Shown piece after piece: positions 39,962 to 45,491 of a stretch of 64,000 nt of DNA. The notes beneath the pieces are model-generated. The model was not told the DNA's origin. It searched no databases and saw only the letters and a list, made by a program, of their open reading frames with translations. Made by a program: the position numbers and the translations under genes. The first letter of the stretch is position 1, and every line of letters begins with the position of its first letter. Origin of the DNA: Flaccisagitta enflata (lineage: Eukaryota); assembly GCA_965153355.1 (NCBI GenBank), contig OZ231126.1:14136001-14200000 (forward strand). The letters are read 5' to 3'.

Positions 39962-41591
39962 ATTCTTCAAAAATCAGCTTTCATTAATACACAAAAAATG
40001 TTTATGCATATCGGTTTAATGATGGTTAAAGATGCGGGAGAAGAGAAAATTTCAATTGAAGATGGAGTTATCCCACCAGCTTCTCCTGCCCAACAATTAT
40101 TCCATGACATAAGTGTAACAATGTCGGATATGTCACTTTCAAGGCCCTCCACATATTATTCCATGCTAGTGCATATTCAACAGATGTTAGAGATTTCTAG
40201 ACCTGTTAAAGAATCCTGGTTGAATTTTTATGAGGGGTATGATGACGATATCGATGGAGCATACTCATCAGTTGACGAAGCTGTTGAAAAAAAAGGAGAT
40301 AAACTTATTGCAAAAAATGCCACTGGACGCAGAATGATTAAAATCTTGAATAAAAAAGTAAACGAATACTTAATCTCACTCGAAACTCCTTTAAAACACT
40401 TTCCAATTCTAATCCCTACGGTAATTTATAAATTGGCATATTTTTTAAAATTTTGAAAAAAAAAATTTTTTTTTTAAATTTTTATCCATTTTTTTTTAAC
40501 AGGGGTTACCAATTTCTCTACGCTGCTTCCTAACCTCTCCTCAGGTTAGATTAATGTAAATCTTAGCCACCTGAAAGTGGACAGAGGACAAAATATCAAT
40601 GCAGAATTTTGTAACATGCAACTAAAAAATTCATTTTTACTTTTTACACTTTTTATAGAAATATTTCGTGGTTCCAGCCAATAGCACTTGTAAACCCAAG
40701 TTTAAGATTACTGAAGGCAAAATCTTGGCGGAACTTCTTCTTCTAAAACCAAATCTCATTCTTGCAATTGAAAGTCGTATGGCCAAAAACTTTCTACAAG
40801 TGGACTTTCAGAGTAGATTCGTCAAAACATTCAGGTTTTTTTGTTTTGTTTTGATTGATTTTGTTTTTGTTTTATTTTTTAATTCTTTCTTTTTTTCTTT
40901 CTTTCTTTTTATATATGTTAGTATCGAGGTTGGCGTCCTGGAGAAAAATCTTCAAATTCACTGTCGTCAGGCATGTTCTTACATCATTTGCGGTTTCCAA
41001 GATAACGTGACACATTGCGGAAATTATCAGAAAAACTATTTTGAGTATACCAGATGCGGTATCCAAAATGCTTATGTAACTTGCAGCGCTGCTGATTTTC
41101 GAATTCCGTCTTTACCAATTCCTACCATTGGCGGACAACAATCCGGTGATTAAAACACACTTGAGACATAGCCATCACAAGTATTGAGACCAACCAATCA
41201 ACTTTGTGTATATATTAAACAATCAAAAAATTTTTAAATACCTATGCAGGCTACGATTTTACCAATTCAAGAGCATTGAAAGCCAGCTATTGGTATGTTT
41301 TGAATACCTTTGGCAAATTGACAAGTAATGCAGGAACCAAAGATTTCTCATTTGATTCCTGGAAAAGCCATAGATTCCTACTACCTTTTAATCTCTCGGG
41401 CGAGGATTCCATCACAGATCCAGAAAACAGAAGGAAAACCACTTTCCGCCCTATTGCAACAGCCAACGATTACTCACTTTATCTGCGTTTTAAAACGCCA
41501 ACAACCAGGTACCACTACCACCAATAACAAGGCCAAAATACATACCCTAGTCGCGTGCGGGGGAAGAGGAGAGGGATTGGCAAGAACAGTG

Positions 41592-41661
<70 letters not shown>

Positions 41662-41755
41662 TGTGATTCGCGTCATAGTTATCTATCTGCAGGCTAGGTC
41701 TATAGGGGTACTCTCTGACCGCACATGTATCAGAAATTTTGAACAAGATCAATAA
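39962..41755 (+). CDS. Polinton-type double-jelly-roll major capsid protein, spliced and 5'-truncated (~417 aa visible). Exons 39962-40420, 40503-40544, 40659-40834, 40922-41145, 41250-41508, 41662-41755
   Basis: Five GT-AG introns with matching phases (0,0,2,1,2); exons total 1254 nt including the stop. The joined protein has MCP-like blocks in the expected order: QQLFHDISVTM...YYSMLVHIQQML; LIPTGLPISLR; FKITEGKIL...FVKTFSI; IICGF..N..CGNYQKNYF; FLLPFNLS; LYLRFK...VIVIYLQARSIGVLSDR. Confidence 0.82.
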
Positions 41756-41775
41756 CAAGACAACAAGACAACAAA

Positions 41776-42336
41776 ATGTCATTTTCATCAAGAGAACTCA
41801 TAACCACAGACAAAGATTTAATGAAATATTTAAAGAAAATTCCGAAAGCACTAAAATTTATCAATAACGGAGCCCTCATTCTTCCTTATGATAAAATTTT
41901 AACATTAAAAGACAATATCTTTTTAAATAAAAGAAAAATGGCCATAGTGCTAAATTCTACACATTCACAAGAAATATATCAAACCACAGGCCACTGGTTC
42001 CTTCTGGCCTTAGACCTACGCAGTCGTAATAAACAATGCTTACTTGTTGATAGCTTGGCAAGCATGTATAGAGATAATAAGGATATAAAAGATACAATTG
42101 ACACTTTTTGTAGTACTCATCGCCTTTCATTGTCGCATTTCAATTTAACTACACAATCTCGGAAAAATGTATGTTGTGGTTTTTTTTTTATTTTCTATTT
42201 ACGACTTTTTACAGTACACAACATCCCACACTTTTTTAAAATAAAACAGCTTTTAAAAGATTATTCCTTGTTAGAACGCGAAAAATATGTCCTGAACCGT
42301 TCCTATAAATTATGTAAATTTGGTGTTTTGTCTTAA
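41776..42336 (+). CDS. Adenain-like (clan CE) cysteine protease, Polinton maturation protease
   Basis: 186 aa with catalytic order His (IVLNST...TGHWF), Asp (LVDSLA) and Gln/Cys (QSRKNVCCGFF). Lies directly after the MCP. Confidence 0.88.
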   Translation: MSFSSRELITTDKDLMKYLKKIPKALKFINNGALILPYDKILTLKDNIFLNKRKMAIVLNSTHSQEIYQTTGHWFLLALDLRSRNKQCLLVDSLASMYRDNKDIKDTIDTFCSTHRLSLSHFNLTTQSRKNVCCGFFFIFYLRLFTVHNIPHFFKIKQLLKDYSLLEREKYVLNRSYKLCKFGVLS

Positions 42337-42347
42337 TTTAGTGAAAC

Positions 42348-43573: not shown

Positions 43574-44014
43574 ATGGAAAGTGGAAAACAGACAGATTCT
43601 GAATCAACTGTGCCAAAACAAGTTGAATCAGAACACCGATCGCCAAACCTGACACTACCAAGATTTCCGCCTCACCACCCAATCGATACTGTCCCACCTA
43701 CTAGTTTCTCAACCCACCTCGATCTGAACCACCCTAATCTACCATTACGTCCTAGGAAACTCGGCTTTGCCCTCTGCACTGTCGTACTAATCCTACTGAC
43801 CACCCAATTTGCATCAAATATCGCGCAAACCAAGTATTTTGCCGACCTTGTTGAGATTGAATCACACCACGAAAATCCATCTGTGCAGCAGCCATTCGCA
43901 ACCTGCATTGTCAACAATAGAAGCAAAACTCTAACTCTTATTTGTAAGAACGCTGTGACTCGTCGATATTCGTTGAGGGATTTAAATCTGGACACGTGCG
44001 GCTTTGGAGGATAA
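43574..44014 (+). CDS. Orphan 146-aa putative single-pass membrane protein
   Basis: Pro-rich N-terminus, basic RPRK then hydrophobic LGFALCTVVLILLTTQF, and a C-terminal part with 3 Cys. Confidence 0.6.
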   Translation: MESGKQTDSESTVPKQVESEHRSPNLTLPRFPPHHPIDTVPPTSFSTHLDLNHPNLPLRPRKLGFALCTVVLILLTTQFASNIAQTKYFADLVEIESHHENPSVQQPFATCIVNNRSKTLTLICKNAVTRRYSLRDLNLDTCGFGG

Positions 44015-44185
44015 TTTGCATGGATGCACAAGATCTTCAATTAAAGGCATTAAACAGGTAAACCTTACCTCAGGTTTAGCTAGTCTATATAAACAGCGAA
44101 TATAAATAATGATTCCATTCATAATTTTTCATCTTATATTAGAGAACTCATTCATTCACGAAAAAAAAAGAACAACCAAATCAAA

Positions 44186-44441
44186 ATGGGTCGTAGAAGA
44201 AGAAAACGGAAAGGAAACAATAGGCGACGTAGACGTAGACGCAGACGCAGAACAAAAGTACTTATGCATATTCTATATTACATACATACAGACATGGTAT
44301 GACATACTAAATTACATACATGTACATAAACATTGCATATCAACATTCTTGTTACAGGGTGCTGGAACATCACAAAAAAGTGCGTTACGTGGAGTGAAAA
44401 GAACAATAGCCAAACGAAGACGGAGACGAAAAACGAAATGA
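44186..44441 (+). CDS. Spliced 51-aa Arg-rich protamine-like protein (exons 44186-44257, 44358-44441)
   Basis: MGRRRRKRKGNNRRRRRRRRRRTK|GAGTSQKSALRGVKRTIAKRRRRRKTK*. Phase-0 intron GTACTT...TTACAG of 100 nt. Arg codons are mixed (CGT/AGA/CGC/CGA/CGG/AGG), so not a simple microsatellite. TATATAAA at ~44086. Confidence 0.7.
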
Positions 44442-44555
44442 TTCTGTACAAACTCTTTCACTTGATATGGTCGTTGGAAAAAGTAAAAAACAAAGATTAA
44501 AAGCCTTTTTTAAAAAAAGGAAGATTAAGAATATCATTATTCTTTATATGTAAAT

Positions 44556-45140
44556 ATGGCTGAAGTTGAAGAAGATCACCCTTTTCAATACTTTCCTACT
44601 TATTCTTTAAATGAGCCAGATTATTCAATTTTAAGACACCGTTTATCCACTTTCATTGACTGGCCCCGTCATCGTTCCCAAACTCCATTACTTCTTGCGG
44701 CTGCGGGCTTTTACATGACTAATGCGTACAGAGGATCAGTAAGATGTTTTTGTTGTGGGCTTGAATTGAGAGATTGGGAACCTGGAGATATAGCAATGTA
44801 TGAGCATGAAAAATTCGCCCCTAATTGTCGCTTTATTATTGAAGAACGCGAAAAACGAGCCAAACGACATGGAACTGAAGATTTAACCCCTTTTATTCGC
44901 GCACTTGATTCTGCAAACAAAAATGATTTAGTTAATCATGGTGAAGATCTGCTTGTCAAAATCAGGTGTAAGGTGTGCTTCACCAAAGTAGCTAATACAC
45001 TATTGTTACCGTGTGCACACTTGGCCCTTTGCCCTGATTGTTGTTCGCGCATCCACCCATGCAATAGAATGTATCCTTACGATAGGAAGTGTCCAGTTTG
45101 TCGCTCACTCTTTCTGAATGAAATTCAAGTGTATCTGTAA
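44556..45140 (+). CDS. iap: Inhibitor of apoptosis protein (single BIR + C-terminal RING)
   Basis: BIR: RLSTFIDWP...LAAAGFY...VRCFCC...W...EHEKFAPNC. RING: CKVC...LLPCAHLALCPDC...CPVCR. Intronless, with AATAAA overlapping/after the stop. Confidence 0.95.
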   Translation: MAEVEEDHPFQYFPTYSLNEPDYSILRHRLSTFIDWPRHRSQTPLLLAAAGFYMTNAYRGSVRCFCCGLELRDWEPGDIAMYEHEKFAPNCRFIIEEREKRAKRHGTEDLTPFIRALDSANKNDLVNHGEDLLVKIRCKVCFTKVANTLLLPCAHLALCPDCCSRIHPCNRMYPYDRKCPVCRSLFLNEIQVYL

Positions 45141-45491
45141 ATAAATGAAAATGTAACTCAATAACAATTCAATAAATTCGATATAACCTTAATTGATTTA
45201 TACTTGTATTGCTTGCTCATTCTACTACAAAACTCAAACACAAAAAGCTAGCTTAATAAAAGACTAGAAACCTTTGCATATGACTTGTCTTATTTTTCGA
45301 ATGGGAGAAACCCTTAATGCTTTAAGTACCCCAAGGGTACCGATGGACTTGTAGCCGAAGCTACTGACCCTGTCCATTGTCAACCACCACTTTGGGACAC
45401 AGCCACAAAATTATTACACCTGCGGGGGTGTGTTAAGAGTATTTTTTTACCAAAAAAAAAACTAGCACTGAACTGTTACTGTCCCACTACT

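Follow-up and report, generated by a model that had tools for sequence, protein, structure and literature searches.

Polinton/Maverick and adintovirus elements are already known from across animals, with IAP cargo and basic core proteins. In the accessible text of one report, adintoviruses carry IAP and Bcl2 homologs as well as Arg-rich, pX-like virion-core domains (PMC8502044). According to the accessible parts of two further reports, intact vertebrate Mavericks and the core genes of nematode Mavericks are intronless, with introns only in the cargo (PMC8097293, 10.1101/2022.07.12.499685). Maverick-Polinton-like proviruses of dinoflagellates, as described in the available part of another report, contain introners and have retained their capsid genes (PMC11957031). 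Here, we focused on a block of genes in a 64,000-nucleotide stretch of an animal genome scaffold (the window). The block is probably a virus-derived element that comprises the morphogenesis and accessory genes of a double-jelly-roll (DJR) virus, with Polinton/Maverick-adintovirus as the best fit. What is unusual is its gene architecture: the introns are in a core gene rather than in the cargo. There are five in the capsid gene, at positions common to close relatives, and one in an Arg-rich gene, whereas the cargo IAP is intronless.

An earlier note on this DNA had described six co-oriented genes with intact frames. This is borne out, as all six are open on the + strand between the edge of an assembly gap (39962) and 45140, the capsid and Arg-rich genes as spliced models. 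The right-hand ~5.5 kb of the putative element is visible in the window. On the left, an N-run scan located the gap at 39952–39961 (10 N; 39962 is the first base past it), which conceals the first ~71 codons of the capsid gene and all upstream sequence of the element. X1, X9 and X12 contigs extend 226–445 nt leftward of 39962, without a match to 39000–39951. Spacers of 20 nt between the capsid gene and the protease and of 11 nt between the protease and the first of two orphan genes represent a tight, virus-like packing.

Counted from the gap edge, the six exons of the capsid gene encode 417 aa up to a TAA stop codon; the 5′ end of the gene is cut by the gap. Exon 1 (39962–40420) is open to the gap edge and is 98% identical, across 153 common residues, to a database protein (P0034) that has ~71 extra N-terminal residues. 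The full capsid protein would be about 488 aa long, of which 417 are visible and ~71 lie behind the gap. Exon 2 (40503–40544) consists of 14 codons and is followed by exon 3 (40659–40834), exon 4 (40922–41145), in which the C-terminal jelly roll begins, exon 5 (41250–41508) and exon 6 with the TAA (41662–41755), where the C-terminus aligns with that of the family. Nineteen library proteins matched a query of exons 3–4 at E ≤ 1e-3. The five GT..AG introns measure 82, 114, 87, 104 and 153 nt and have a GC content of 0.11–0.30, versus 0.35–0.50 in the exons. A run of 67 T at 41593–41659 lies in intron 5 (41509–41661), and the contigs of all compared runs are cut at 41583–41669. As reading through the introns yields 20 in-frame stops, the frame of the capsid gene stays open in the spliced model only. 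Distant homologs cross all five junctions without a break (7, 13, 10, 5 and 5 homologs for junctions 1 to 5, respectively), and at the level of these protein alignments the intron positions are confirmed. Relatives down to 58% identity are interrupted at the same junctions as in the window; in more distant relatives the break falls at or close to the junction, or there is none.

The earlier note proposed that the structural genes depend on host splicing. The part that stands is that an open frame in the capsid and Arg-rich genes requires the removal of their GT..AG introns, at positions supported by homologs; no splice joint was found among the 15 joints listed, of 33, for two metatranscriptome runs. 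Metatranscriptome contigs do cover exon 1 and the stretch from exon 6, across the protease gene, to within orphan 1. At least five variants of the gene, with 85–89% identity in the common exon 1 residues and 82–83% over the whole protein, are all open from the Met to the intron. Two copies are degraded (P0012, 96% identical, and P0022, 62%), with the frame lost within exon 3. Between the window and the compared runs there are 20 coding differences, 13 residue-changing and 7 silent, and thus no visible purifying selection. The element shares with the dinoflagellate proviruses that it is probably an integrated DJR-virus element in which a capsid gene is combined with spliceosomal introns, as far as the available text describes them (PMC11957031). 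It differs in that its host is an animal and in that its introns are short, AT-rich and of low complexity, matching (blastn) only simple T-rich or TTTC-type repeats within the window and bearing no mark of introners.

The capsid protein has no sequence match to any capsid in Pfam, NCBIfam, PHROG or PDB, and in this it differs from Polintons and adintoviruses; it is a member of a rare family. Its fold was addressed through a homolog (P0021) that is 33% identical to the window model over residues 208–417, rather than through the window's own protein. The C-terminal half of this homolog was modelled with a pLDDT of 79.6 and a pTM of 0.76. When the model was searched with VIA against 48,161 PDB chains, ranks 1–11 were all DJR capsid or D13-type proteins: Faustovirus (Z 9.6), p72 (9.4), EhV-201 (9.3), PBCV-1 (9.2), Sputnik (8.9), hexon (8.8), Orf virus scaffold (8.2), mavirus (7.7), PBCV-1 (7.1), PRD1 (7.0) and SGIV (6.9), where differences in Z below 1 count as ties according to the tool. 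Each of these aligned over its C-terminal jelly roll, and the next match was an unrelated sandwich (Z 6.4). The earlier note had also proposed a Foldseek comparison, which returned capsid-type matches at E ≤ 1e-3 for the same homolog. There were 48 in BFVD, nearly all capsid proteins, including those of a MELD virus, an adomavirus (LO7) and an adintovirus and a bracovirus-borne protein, and 24 in PDB, of which the 14 listed were all DJR MCPs and the others further chains of the same entries. A second homolog (P0019) gave a poorer model (pLDDT 50.5) with a low-confidence N-terminal region, for which eight DJR MCPs were still top-ranked among the 48,161 chains, with matches confined to residues 143–305. 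By Atlas language-model features, the clusters nearest to exon 1 and P0019 were viral and animal (score 0.96). In these clusters 10–18% of members carry Capsid_N, DJR-like_dom, Capsid_NCLDV or Sputnik_MCP; for exon 1, Capsid_N is present in 12–17% of members. By way of the C-terminal half of its homolog, the models support a putative jelly-roll capsid of DJR-MCP type as the product of the first gene. Some 300 residues lie before the modelled C-terminal domain, and we infer that the protein also has an N-terminal jelly roll. Of the double jelly roll that had been claimed for this MCP, it is the C-terminal roll that was recovered, from the model of a 33%-identical homolog with VIA and Foldseek; the N-terminal roll was never confidently folded.

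Directly after the capsid gene, a gene of 186 aa (41776–42336) encodes a putative clan CE cysteine protease of the Ulp1/adenain type. The residues H73, D92, Q127 and C133, read by eye, show Ulp1-like spacing. The Pfam Peptidase_C48 match covers only residues 70–113 and scores just below the cut-off (E 6.3e-4, 20.1 bits versus 20.7), and there is no sequence match in PDB. The adenain-like protease suggested previously is thus recovered as an H-D-Q-C protease, 20 nt after the capsid gene, with a sub-cut-off Pfam score. A DJR-type capsid of ~490 aa that adjoins a putative clan CE protease, and the probable integration in an animal genome, are points of likeness to Polintons and adintoviruses. The structural matches further include a bracovirus protein of 496 aa and an adintovirus protein labelled as penton capsid; the adintovirus capsid was matched only with the weak first model.

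Two further genes extend this likeness: an IAP and an Arg-rich gene accompany the capsid gene on the same strand, as had been noted before. The Arg-rich gene was derived from the ORF list and a splice model, and it contains two exons (44186–44257 and 44358–44441) separated by a single GT..AG intron of 100 nt. It encodes 51 aa, 30 of which are R or K. The IAP (44556–45140) is an intronless gene of 194 aa with one BIR and a C-terminal RING domain. Pfam matches are BIR (E 4.9e-19, 69.1 bits, cut-off 22.9) and zf-C3HC4_3 (E 4.3e-9, 36.5 bits, cut-off 27), and 86 PDB sequences match at E ≤ 1e-3, with the BIR domains of NAIP, XIAP and cIAP down to 5e-34. Like cellular and viral IAPs, it combines a BIR that strongly matches those of XIAP, cIAP, NAIP and DIAP1 with a C-terminal C3HC4 RING. 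Unlike XIAP, cIAP, DIAP1 and the baculovirus IAPs, it consists of a single BIR in 194 aa, without introns, at the end of a virus-like block.

Right after the IAP stop, a non-coding tail with AATAAA-like signals (45141–45491) ends in ACTACT (45486–45491), as the earlier note had observed. The tail is covered at the depth of the element by X1 and X2 contigs, to 45337 and 45350, in which 13 and 12 nt of the window sequence are deleted. The right limit of unique sequence is a (GGTAATTATA)n satellite that starts at 45492 (45492–45614), where the depth rises ~900–1300-fold (X1, X2). No inverted partner of the tail was found among the 25 longest of 2582 inverted pairs in the window, and blastn of the element against the window revealed neither an inverted tail partner nor a second copy; the left end of the element lies beyond the gap. 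ACTACT is therefore only the point at which the host satellite begins, and we rejected it as the terminus of the element. No TSD was seen within the window. The earlier note had stated that the window lacks the replication genes, which it expected to the left of the gap. Of the 99 window ORFs of at least 120 aa, which were read by eye (5 were scanned with Pfam), none could be recognised as encoding a pPolB, integrase, packaging ATPase or penton. In particular, no packaging ATPase or penton was recognised within 39962–45491. With these genes, the TIRs and the TSDs missing from the visible right-hand part, Polinton/adintovirus membership is unproven.

The late region of adenoviruses offers a further comparison. 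Here too the capsid gene and the protease are adjacent on one strand, a basic core protein is present, and hexon is among the top structural matches (Z 8.8). The element's protease, however, matches Pfam C48 rather than the adenain family C5, and its capsid protein is half as large as hexon. Late expression in adenoviruses relies on host splicing, as is proposed for the element. In adenoviruses, leaders are spliced onto coding regions that are themselves intact, and the hexon frame stays uninterrupted, unlike that of the element's capsid gene. If the block works as its gene content suggests, it would be transcribed in the host nucleus and would need the host spliceosome. The ~488-aa capsid protein would then form trimeric, pseudo-hexameric capsomers, and the cysteine protease would mature virion proteins in an adenain-like manner. 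The 51-aa Arg-rich protein may condense DNA in the manner of pX/mu in adenoviruses and the pX-like domains in adintoviruses, and the BIR–RING protein may block caspase-dependent cell death. The two orphan products, one with acidic repeats and the other small and membrane-like, could be accessory or virion proteins.

We considered whether the block instead descends, as an endogenous fragment, from a different lineage of DJR viruses, for example a small invertebrate nucleocytoplasmic virus or an undescribed group of the Bamfordvirae. In BFVD, the C-terminal jelly roll is closest to giant-virus capsids (Foldseek 1.6e-6, versus 3.3e-4 for the adintovirus match), the highest Z-scores (9.2–9.6) belong to Faustovirus, p72, EhV and PBCV-1, Nucleocytoviricota clusters are among the Atlas neighbours, and no Polinton hallmark gene was recognised in the window. 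Giant viruses also carry IAPs, Ulp1-type proteases and basic DNA-binding proteins. Yet the capsid protein is compact, the genes are small and closely packed, and the protease follows the capsid gene on the same strand, an order also seen in adenovirus-type and Polinton-type modules. The capsids of Sputnik, mavirus, hexon, the MELD virus and the adintovirus score just slightly lower, and gaps in Z below 1 count as ties. We regard another DJR lineage as an improbable source. No giant-virus core gene was recognised by eye beside the capsid gene among the ORFs of the window. A free virus or contaminant contig, joined to the host scaffold in error through the flanking repeats, would account for the gap right at the left edge, the very high-copy satellite at the right edge and the region 45350–45612, which is crossed by no listed X1 or X2 contig, so that the evidence for the junction with host DNA is the assembly. 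It would also agree with the occurrence of parts of the stretch in marine metagenomic and metatranscriptomic data (20 of 24 listed entries, from 8 studies). Set against this is an SH2B-like gene at 51441–53618 (SH2, 1.6e-7; Phe_ZIP, 5.9e-4), which by its sequence marks the host as an animal: it lies 6 kb from the element, and the sequence from 39962 to 64000 is free of N. The depth of the element is flat in two DNA data sets (~6.7 in X1, ~1000 in X2). Its ratios to the flanking host repeats (left, 328 versus 687; right, 1278 versus 923) agree within ~2-fold in a comparison of one organism-labelled run with one metagenome. As the intron architecture and the degraded paralogs also fit residence in a germline, we consider such a mis-join very unlikely.

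The block could also be an old, immobile remnant or a domesticated cluster of host genes that gained its introns during a long life in the host. Five spliceosomal introns in a core gene, where the accessible descriptions of intact animal Mavericks report none (PMC8097293, 10.1101/2022.07.12.499685), speak for this, as do the two degraded copies that leave the frame inside exon 3, the missing replication genes, the stable depth ratio to host repeats and the metatranscriptome contigs over exon 1 and from exon 6 to orphan 1. On the other hand, all six genes are open, cargo and orphans included, the 11- and 20-nt spacers are virus-like, and the five or more open variants look like a diversifying multi-copy family. 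Transposition at the DNA level would retain introns, so the introns are compatible with mobility. We regard domestication or long immobility as quite unlikely. To go beyond a virus-derived, Polinton/adintovirus-like element and propose a widespread, still replicating lineage of a marine planktonic animal, with a capsid gene that depends on splicing at five positions and that diversifies with its introns kept, is speculative, as is the recent activity that the earlier note proposed, and we hold this extension to be rather doubtful.

In a lineage that still moves, host splicing would be an inherent step of virion production; in one that has stopped moving, a capsid gene would clearly have settled as a host-type gene. 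A replicating lineage would mean that a DNA virus or self-synthesising element has a core structural gene of host-like build. As this gene bears introns, ORF-based virus scans of eukaryotic genomes would miss it. A large survey of endogenous dsDNA viruses states, in its accessible text, that introns were ignored (10.1101/2025.04.19.649669). Counts for marine invertebrates would include too few intron-split elements with an unmatched capsid family. No related locus turned up in scans of JGI and IMG/VR.

The two orphans lie between the protease and the Arg-rich gene. Orphan 2 (43574–44014, 146 aa) has a Pro-rich N-terminus, one hydrophobic, membrane-like segment and a Cys-bearing C-terminus; it has no family match, with a PHROG holin at E 0.23 only. 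Orphan 1 (42348–43334, 328 aa) has no match in PDB, NCBIfam or PHROG. It consists of a hydrophobic N-terminus, acidic tandem repeats rich in Ser, Gly and Asp, and a C-terminal domain of ~110 aa, and it shows a weak match to RT_RNaseH_2 (E 0.011).

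The virus-like gene block at 39962–45491 is real and well delimited, and probably forms the morphogenesis and accessory part of an element derived from a double jelly roll (DJR) virus in an animal genome. The eukaryotic DNA around it is rich in repeats and interrupted by two gaps of 10 N (17676–17685 and 39952–39961). From 39962, the first base past the second gap, to 45140, coding potential is found exclusively on the plus strand. Gene 1, the capsid gene candidate, is open solely as a six-exon model on this strand (39962–40420, 40503–40544, 40659–40834, 40922–41145, 41250–41508 and 41662–41755) that runs from the gap edge to a TAA stop and encodes 417 residues. 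Its introns, five in number, are each bounded by GT..AG and measure 82–153 nt, their GC is 0.11–0.30 versus 0.35–0.50 in the exons, and reading through them yields 20 in-frame stops. Downstream on the same strand follow ORFs for a protease (41776–42336, 186 aa), orphan 1 (42348–43334, 328 aa) and orphan 2 (43574–44014, 146 aa), a two-exon Arg-rich gene (44186–44257 and 44358–44441; 51 aa, 30 of which are Arg or Lys) and an IAP ORF (44556–45140, 194 aa). The spacers between genes 1 and 2 and between genes 2 and 3 are only 20 and 11 nt long. The tail after the IAP gene is 351 nt, with ACTACT as its last bases (45486–45491), and a (GGTAATTATA)n array begins at 45492. With each gene checked in the sequence, the layout described in the earlier note, six co-oriented genes followed by a tail ending in ACTACT, was borne out. 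The six frames are open as it had stated, although gene 1 is truncated by the gap, which is the sole correction.

Gene 1 had no sequence match in Pfam, NCBIfam, PHROGs or the PDB, with either single sequences or profiles. The best NCBIfam and PHROGs scores were not under E 0.0097, and Pfam placed a capsid family on none of the 19 members of homolog alignment A1. Profiles of alignments A1, A3 and A4 searched against PDB sequences stayed at chance level, with proteasome alpha at E 0.37 for A1, no match for A3 and a designed protein at E 0.52 for A4. The nearest clusters to exon 1 and to a 305-aa homolog (P0019) in language-model features were viral and animal (score 0.96); a minority of their members carry Capsid_N, DJR-like_dom, Capsid_NCLDV or Sputnik_MCP_1st, which at the recognition values obtained is weak evidence. 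The AlphaFold model of P0019, made from 19 sequences, was poor (pLDDT 50.5). An unbiased VIA search with it placed eight DJR capsid proteins on top of 48,161 chains (Z 5.4–4.5), and Foldseek against BFVD gave no match at E ≤ 1e-3 (best, a bracovirus protein at 6e-3; an adintovirus capsid at 0.083).

A second homolog, P0021, covers ~200 residues up to and including the C-terminus, and its AlphaFold model from 20 sequences reached pLDDT 79.6 and pTM 0.76. VIA ranks 1–11 for this model were all DJR capsid or D13 proteins (Z 9.6 to 6.9), with the alignment falling on the C-terminal jelly roll of each, and unrelated beta-sandwiches appeared from Z 6.4. Foldseek against BFVD returned 48 matches at E ≤ 1e-3, almost all of them capsid proteins, from giant viruses, a MELD virus, virophages, adomaviruses, an adintovirus, adenoviruses and ASFV. 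Against the PDB there were 24 matches at E ≤ 1e-3; the 14 listed are all DJR capsids, and the rest are more chains of the same entries. These matches place a predicted capsid-type jelly roll in the C-terminal half of the gene 1 family. The earlier claim of a major capsid protein with a DJR fold thus stands for the C-terminal jelly roll, the part that the confident model covers; a second jelly roll in the N-terminal ~300 residues is inferred from the protein size, the language-model (Atlas) features and the kind of proteins matched in structure.

The exon 3–4 frame, used as a query against 1.84 billion representative proteins, gave 19 matches at E ≤ 1e-3, and a profile search of a 5.8-billion protein set gave 24 at E ≤ 0.01. 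The homologs are short fragments throughout, without a name or Pfam domain. Those from the profile search and from one further listing come from ENA assemblies, one also from Logan. We aligned 41 homologs (P0009–P0050, minus P0023, a 1257-aa low-complexity match) to the gene 1 model. Junctions 1 to 5 were bridged unbroken by 7, 13, 10, 5 and 5 homologs, respectively, which are 26–54% identical to the model. In close relatives (58–98% identical), the match ends, or 27–34 residues are added, precisely at the window's junctions: nine break at junction 1, P0038 also breaks at junction 2, and P0009 does so at junction 4. Among the distant relatives, some (P0018, P0020, P0025, P0014 and P0050) likewise show interruptions at junctions 3 and 4 or close by. 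Bridged junctions and breaks at the same points together indicate that the predicted exons and phases are right, and that introns have been gained or lost within the gene 1 family. The homologs that bridge junctions may stem from genomic or from transcript assemblies, and may accordingly be relatives that lack the introns or relatives' transcripts after splicing. One homolog, P0034, matches exon 1 at 98% identity and has its Met start ~71 residues further upstream; the full protein would accordingly be ~488 aa, with at least 213 nt of exon 1 concealed by the gap. A word-based search for longer proteins with exon 1 scored none of 362 candidates. Scans of IMG/VR with the protease and with the exon-1 alignment A3 gave 2 and 40 pattern matches, and scans of JGI metagenomes with A3 and alignment A2 gave 28 and 174, of which none was confirmed.

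The new point is that it is the core capsid gene in which the introns sit. The ORFs of intact vertebrate Mavericks are described as intronless (PMC8097293), nematode Mavericks as having intronless core genes and cargo marked by introns (10.1101/2022.07.12.499685), and dinoflagellate Maverick-Polinton-like proviruses as bearing introners (PMC11957031). Judged by title and abstract, no paper in the literature searched describes several introns within the major capsid gene of a Polinton-like element from an animal, although such a report may exist.

The remaining genes are assigned with differing confidence. The 186-aa protein matches Pfam Peptidase_C48 over its His-Asp region (E 6.3e-4; 20.1 bits, cut-off 20.7), and H73, D92, Q127 and C133 can be read from its sequence with Ulp1-like spacing. 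It is, with moderate confidence, a predicted clan-CE protease. The adenain-like protease of the earlier note is retained to that extent, although the Pfam score lies below the cut-off and the protein has no PDB sequence match. The 194-aa gene is beyond doubt an IAP by its sequence matches, as had been claimed (Pfam BIR 4.9e-19, RING 4.3e-9; 86 PDB matches). The putative Arg-rich gene is defined by composition alone. Orphan 1 contains acidic Ser/Gly/Asp repeats, and its C-terminus (42978–43331) has weak RNase H-like similarity to LTR-retrotransposon reverse transcriptases (RT_RNaseH_2 E 0.011, RT_RNaseH E 0.12). This domain, which had no PDB match, may descend from part of a retroelement that was captured and then decayed, or the similarity may be due to chance. 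Orphan 2 has a single hydrophobic segment, and neither orphan matched a family in Pfam, NCBIfam or PHROGs.

Part of the element is present in 20 of the 24 public sequencing runs listed, from 8 studies; they comprise metagenomes from marine samples or seawater, two runs that bear the label of a single organism, and four metatranscriptomes. Four runs were compared in detail with the window. DNA contigs of runs X1 and X2 trace the element at a flat depth of ~6.7 and ~1000, respectively, with few differences; one contig of 2598 nt covers 41708–44275 with 7 other letters. Exon 1, together with 445 nt beyond the gap edge on its left, and 41670–42688 are covered by RNA contigs at 8–23x and other parts at 0–4x, and expression of the element is plausible. 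Introns 2 and 4 are entered, for 42 and 58 nt, by two low-depth RNA contigs of run X9 (records 28 and 29), which therefore derive from DNA or from RNA that is still unspliced. In introns 1, 3 and 5 the contigs break off at stretches of low complexity. Of the spliced structural genes proposed earlier, gene 1 is supported by homologs in its exons and phases, and its splicing is predicted; no splice joint at the predicted introns occurs among the 15 joints listed of 33. Intron 5 holds an uninterrupted 67-T run (41593–41659), its length as assembled, at which the contigs of each of the four runs break off.

The element is probably best filed as Polinton/adintovirus-like, as first proposed; its hallmark replication genes and termini would lie outside the sequence read. 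In line with the earlier note, no replication gene was recognised in the window: no polymerase, integrase or ATPase lookalike was seen by eye among its 99 ORFs of at least 120 aa, five of which were scanned against Pfam. Adintoviruses are described as carrying IAP and Bcl2 homologs and pX-like basic domains (PMC8502044). Derivation from another DJR-virus lineage seems unlikely; the structural matches of the gene 1 family extend from adintovirus and adenovirus capsids to those of giant viruses and virophages. We likewise give little weight to an immobile or domesticated remnant. All six frames are open. No second copy of the element and no inverted partner of its tail was found within the window. 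Of the 20 coding differences between window and runs, 13 change a residue, which carries no selection signal either way.

That the block is a free virus placed in the scaffold by mistake is a distinctly improbable reading. Left of the gap, the DNA belongs to a repeat of very high copy number, whose depth reaches ~687,000 versus ~1000 for the element in X2, so the left flank is host repeat outside the element. To the right there are no further gaps, and an open frame of 726 aa on the minus strand at 51441–53618 (SH2 E 1.6e-7, phenylalanine-zipper E 5.9e-4) is a predicted SH2B-type adaptor gene. As this gene lies 6 kb from the element, uninterrupted by a gap, the scaffold is animal. The depth ratio of flank repeat to element was 328 (X1) and 687 (X2) on the left and 1278 (X1) and 923 (X2) on the right; such similar ratios in a metagenome and an organism-labelled run cautiously point to a fixed stoichiometry with the host genome. 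None of the contigs listed crosses the right junction (45350–45612), and the junction between element and host DNA rests on the assembly.

Several smaller features were seen. At 40103, where the window differs, all four runs read G, giving the residue found in homologs. The spacer that precedes the IAP gene is longer by 28 nt in X1 and X2, inserted behind 44538, and X2 and X9 have 18 extra in-frame nt behind 42669. Relative to the window, the tail lacks 13 nt at 45227 in X1 and X2 and 12 nt at 45275 in X2 only. These differences are either allelic or paralogous variants or assembly errors. Inverted copies (312 nt, 86%) of the very high-copy repeat of the left flank lie at 19696–20007 and 39418–39729, the latter directly left of the gap. 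An inverted pair at 45611–45765 and 46235–46389 (155 nt, 84% complementary, 469 nt apart) sits amid (GGTAATTATA)n satellite blocks, with very high arm depth in the runs compared, and resembles an insertion of foldback or MITE-like type. Neither Rfam nor a tRNA scan returned anything for the window. A 555-aa open frame without a Pfam match (16010–17675) ends at the first gap and has an acidic Ser/Asp-rich tail. Near-identical ORF translations recur ~12 kb apart (18836–19332 and 30925–31450; 17686–18235 and 29756–30322), adjoining long poly-K/E/R low-complexity runs, which hints at duplication of a segment or at a repeat with a large unit.
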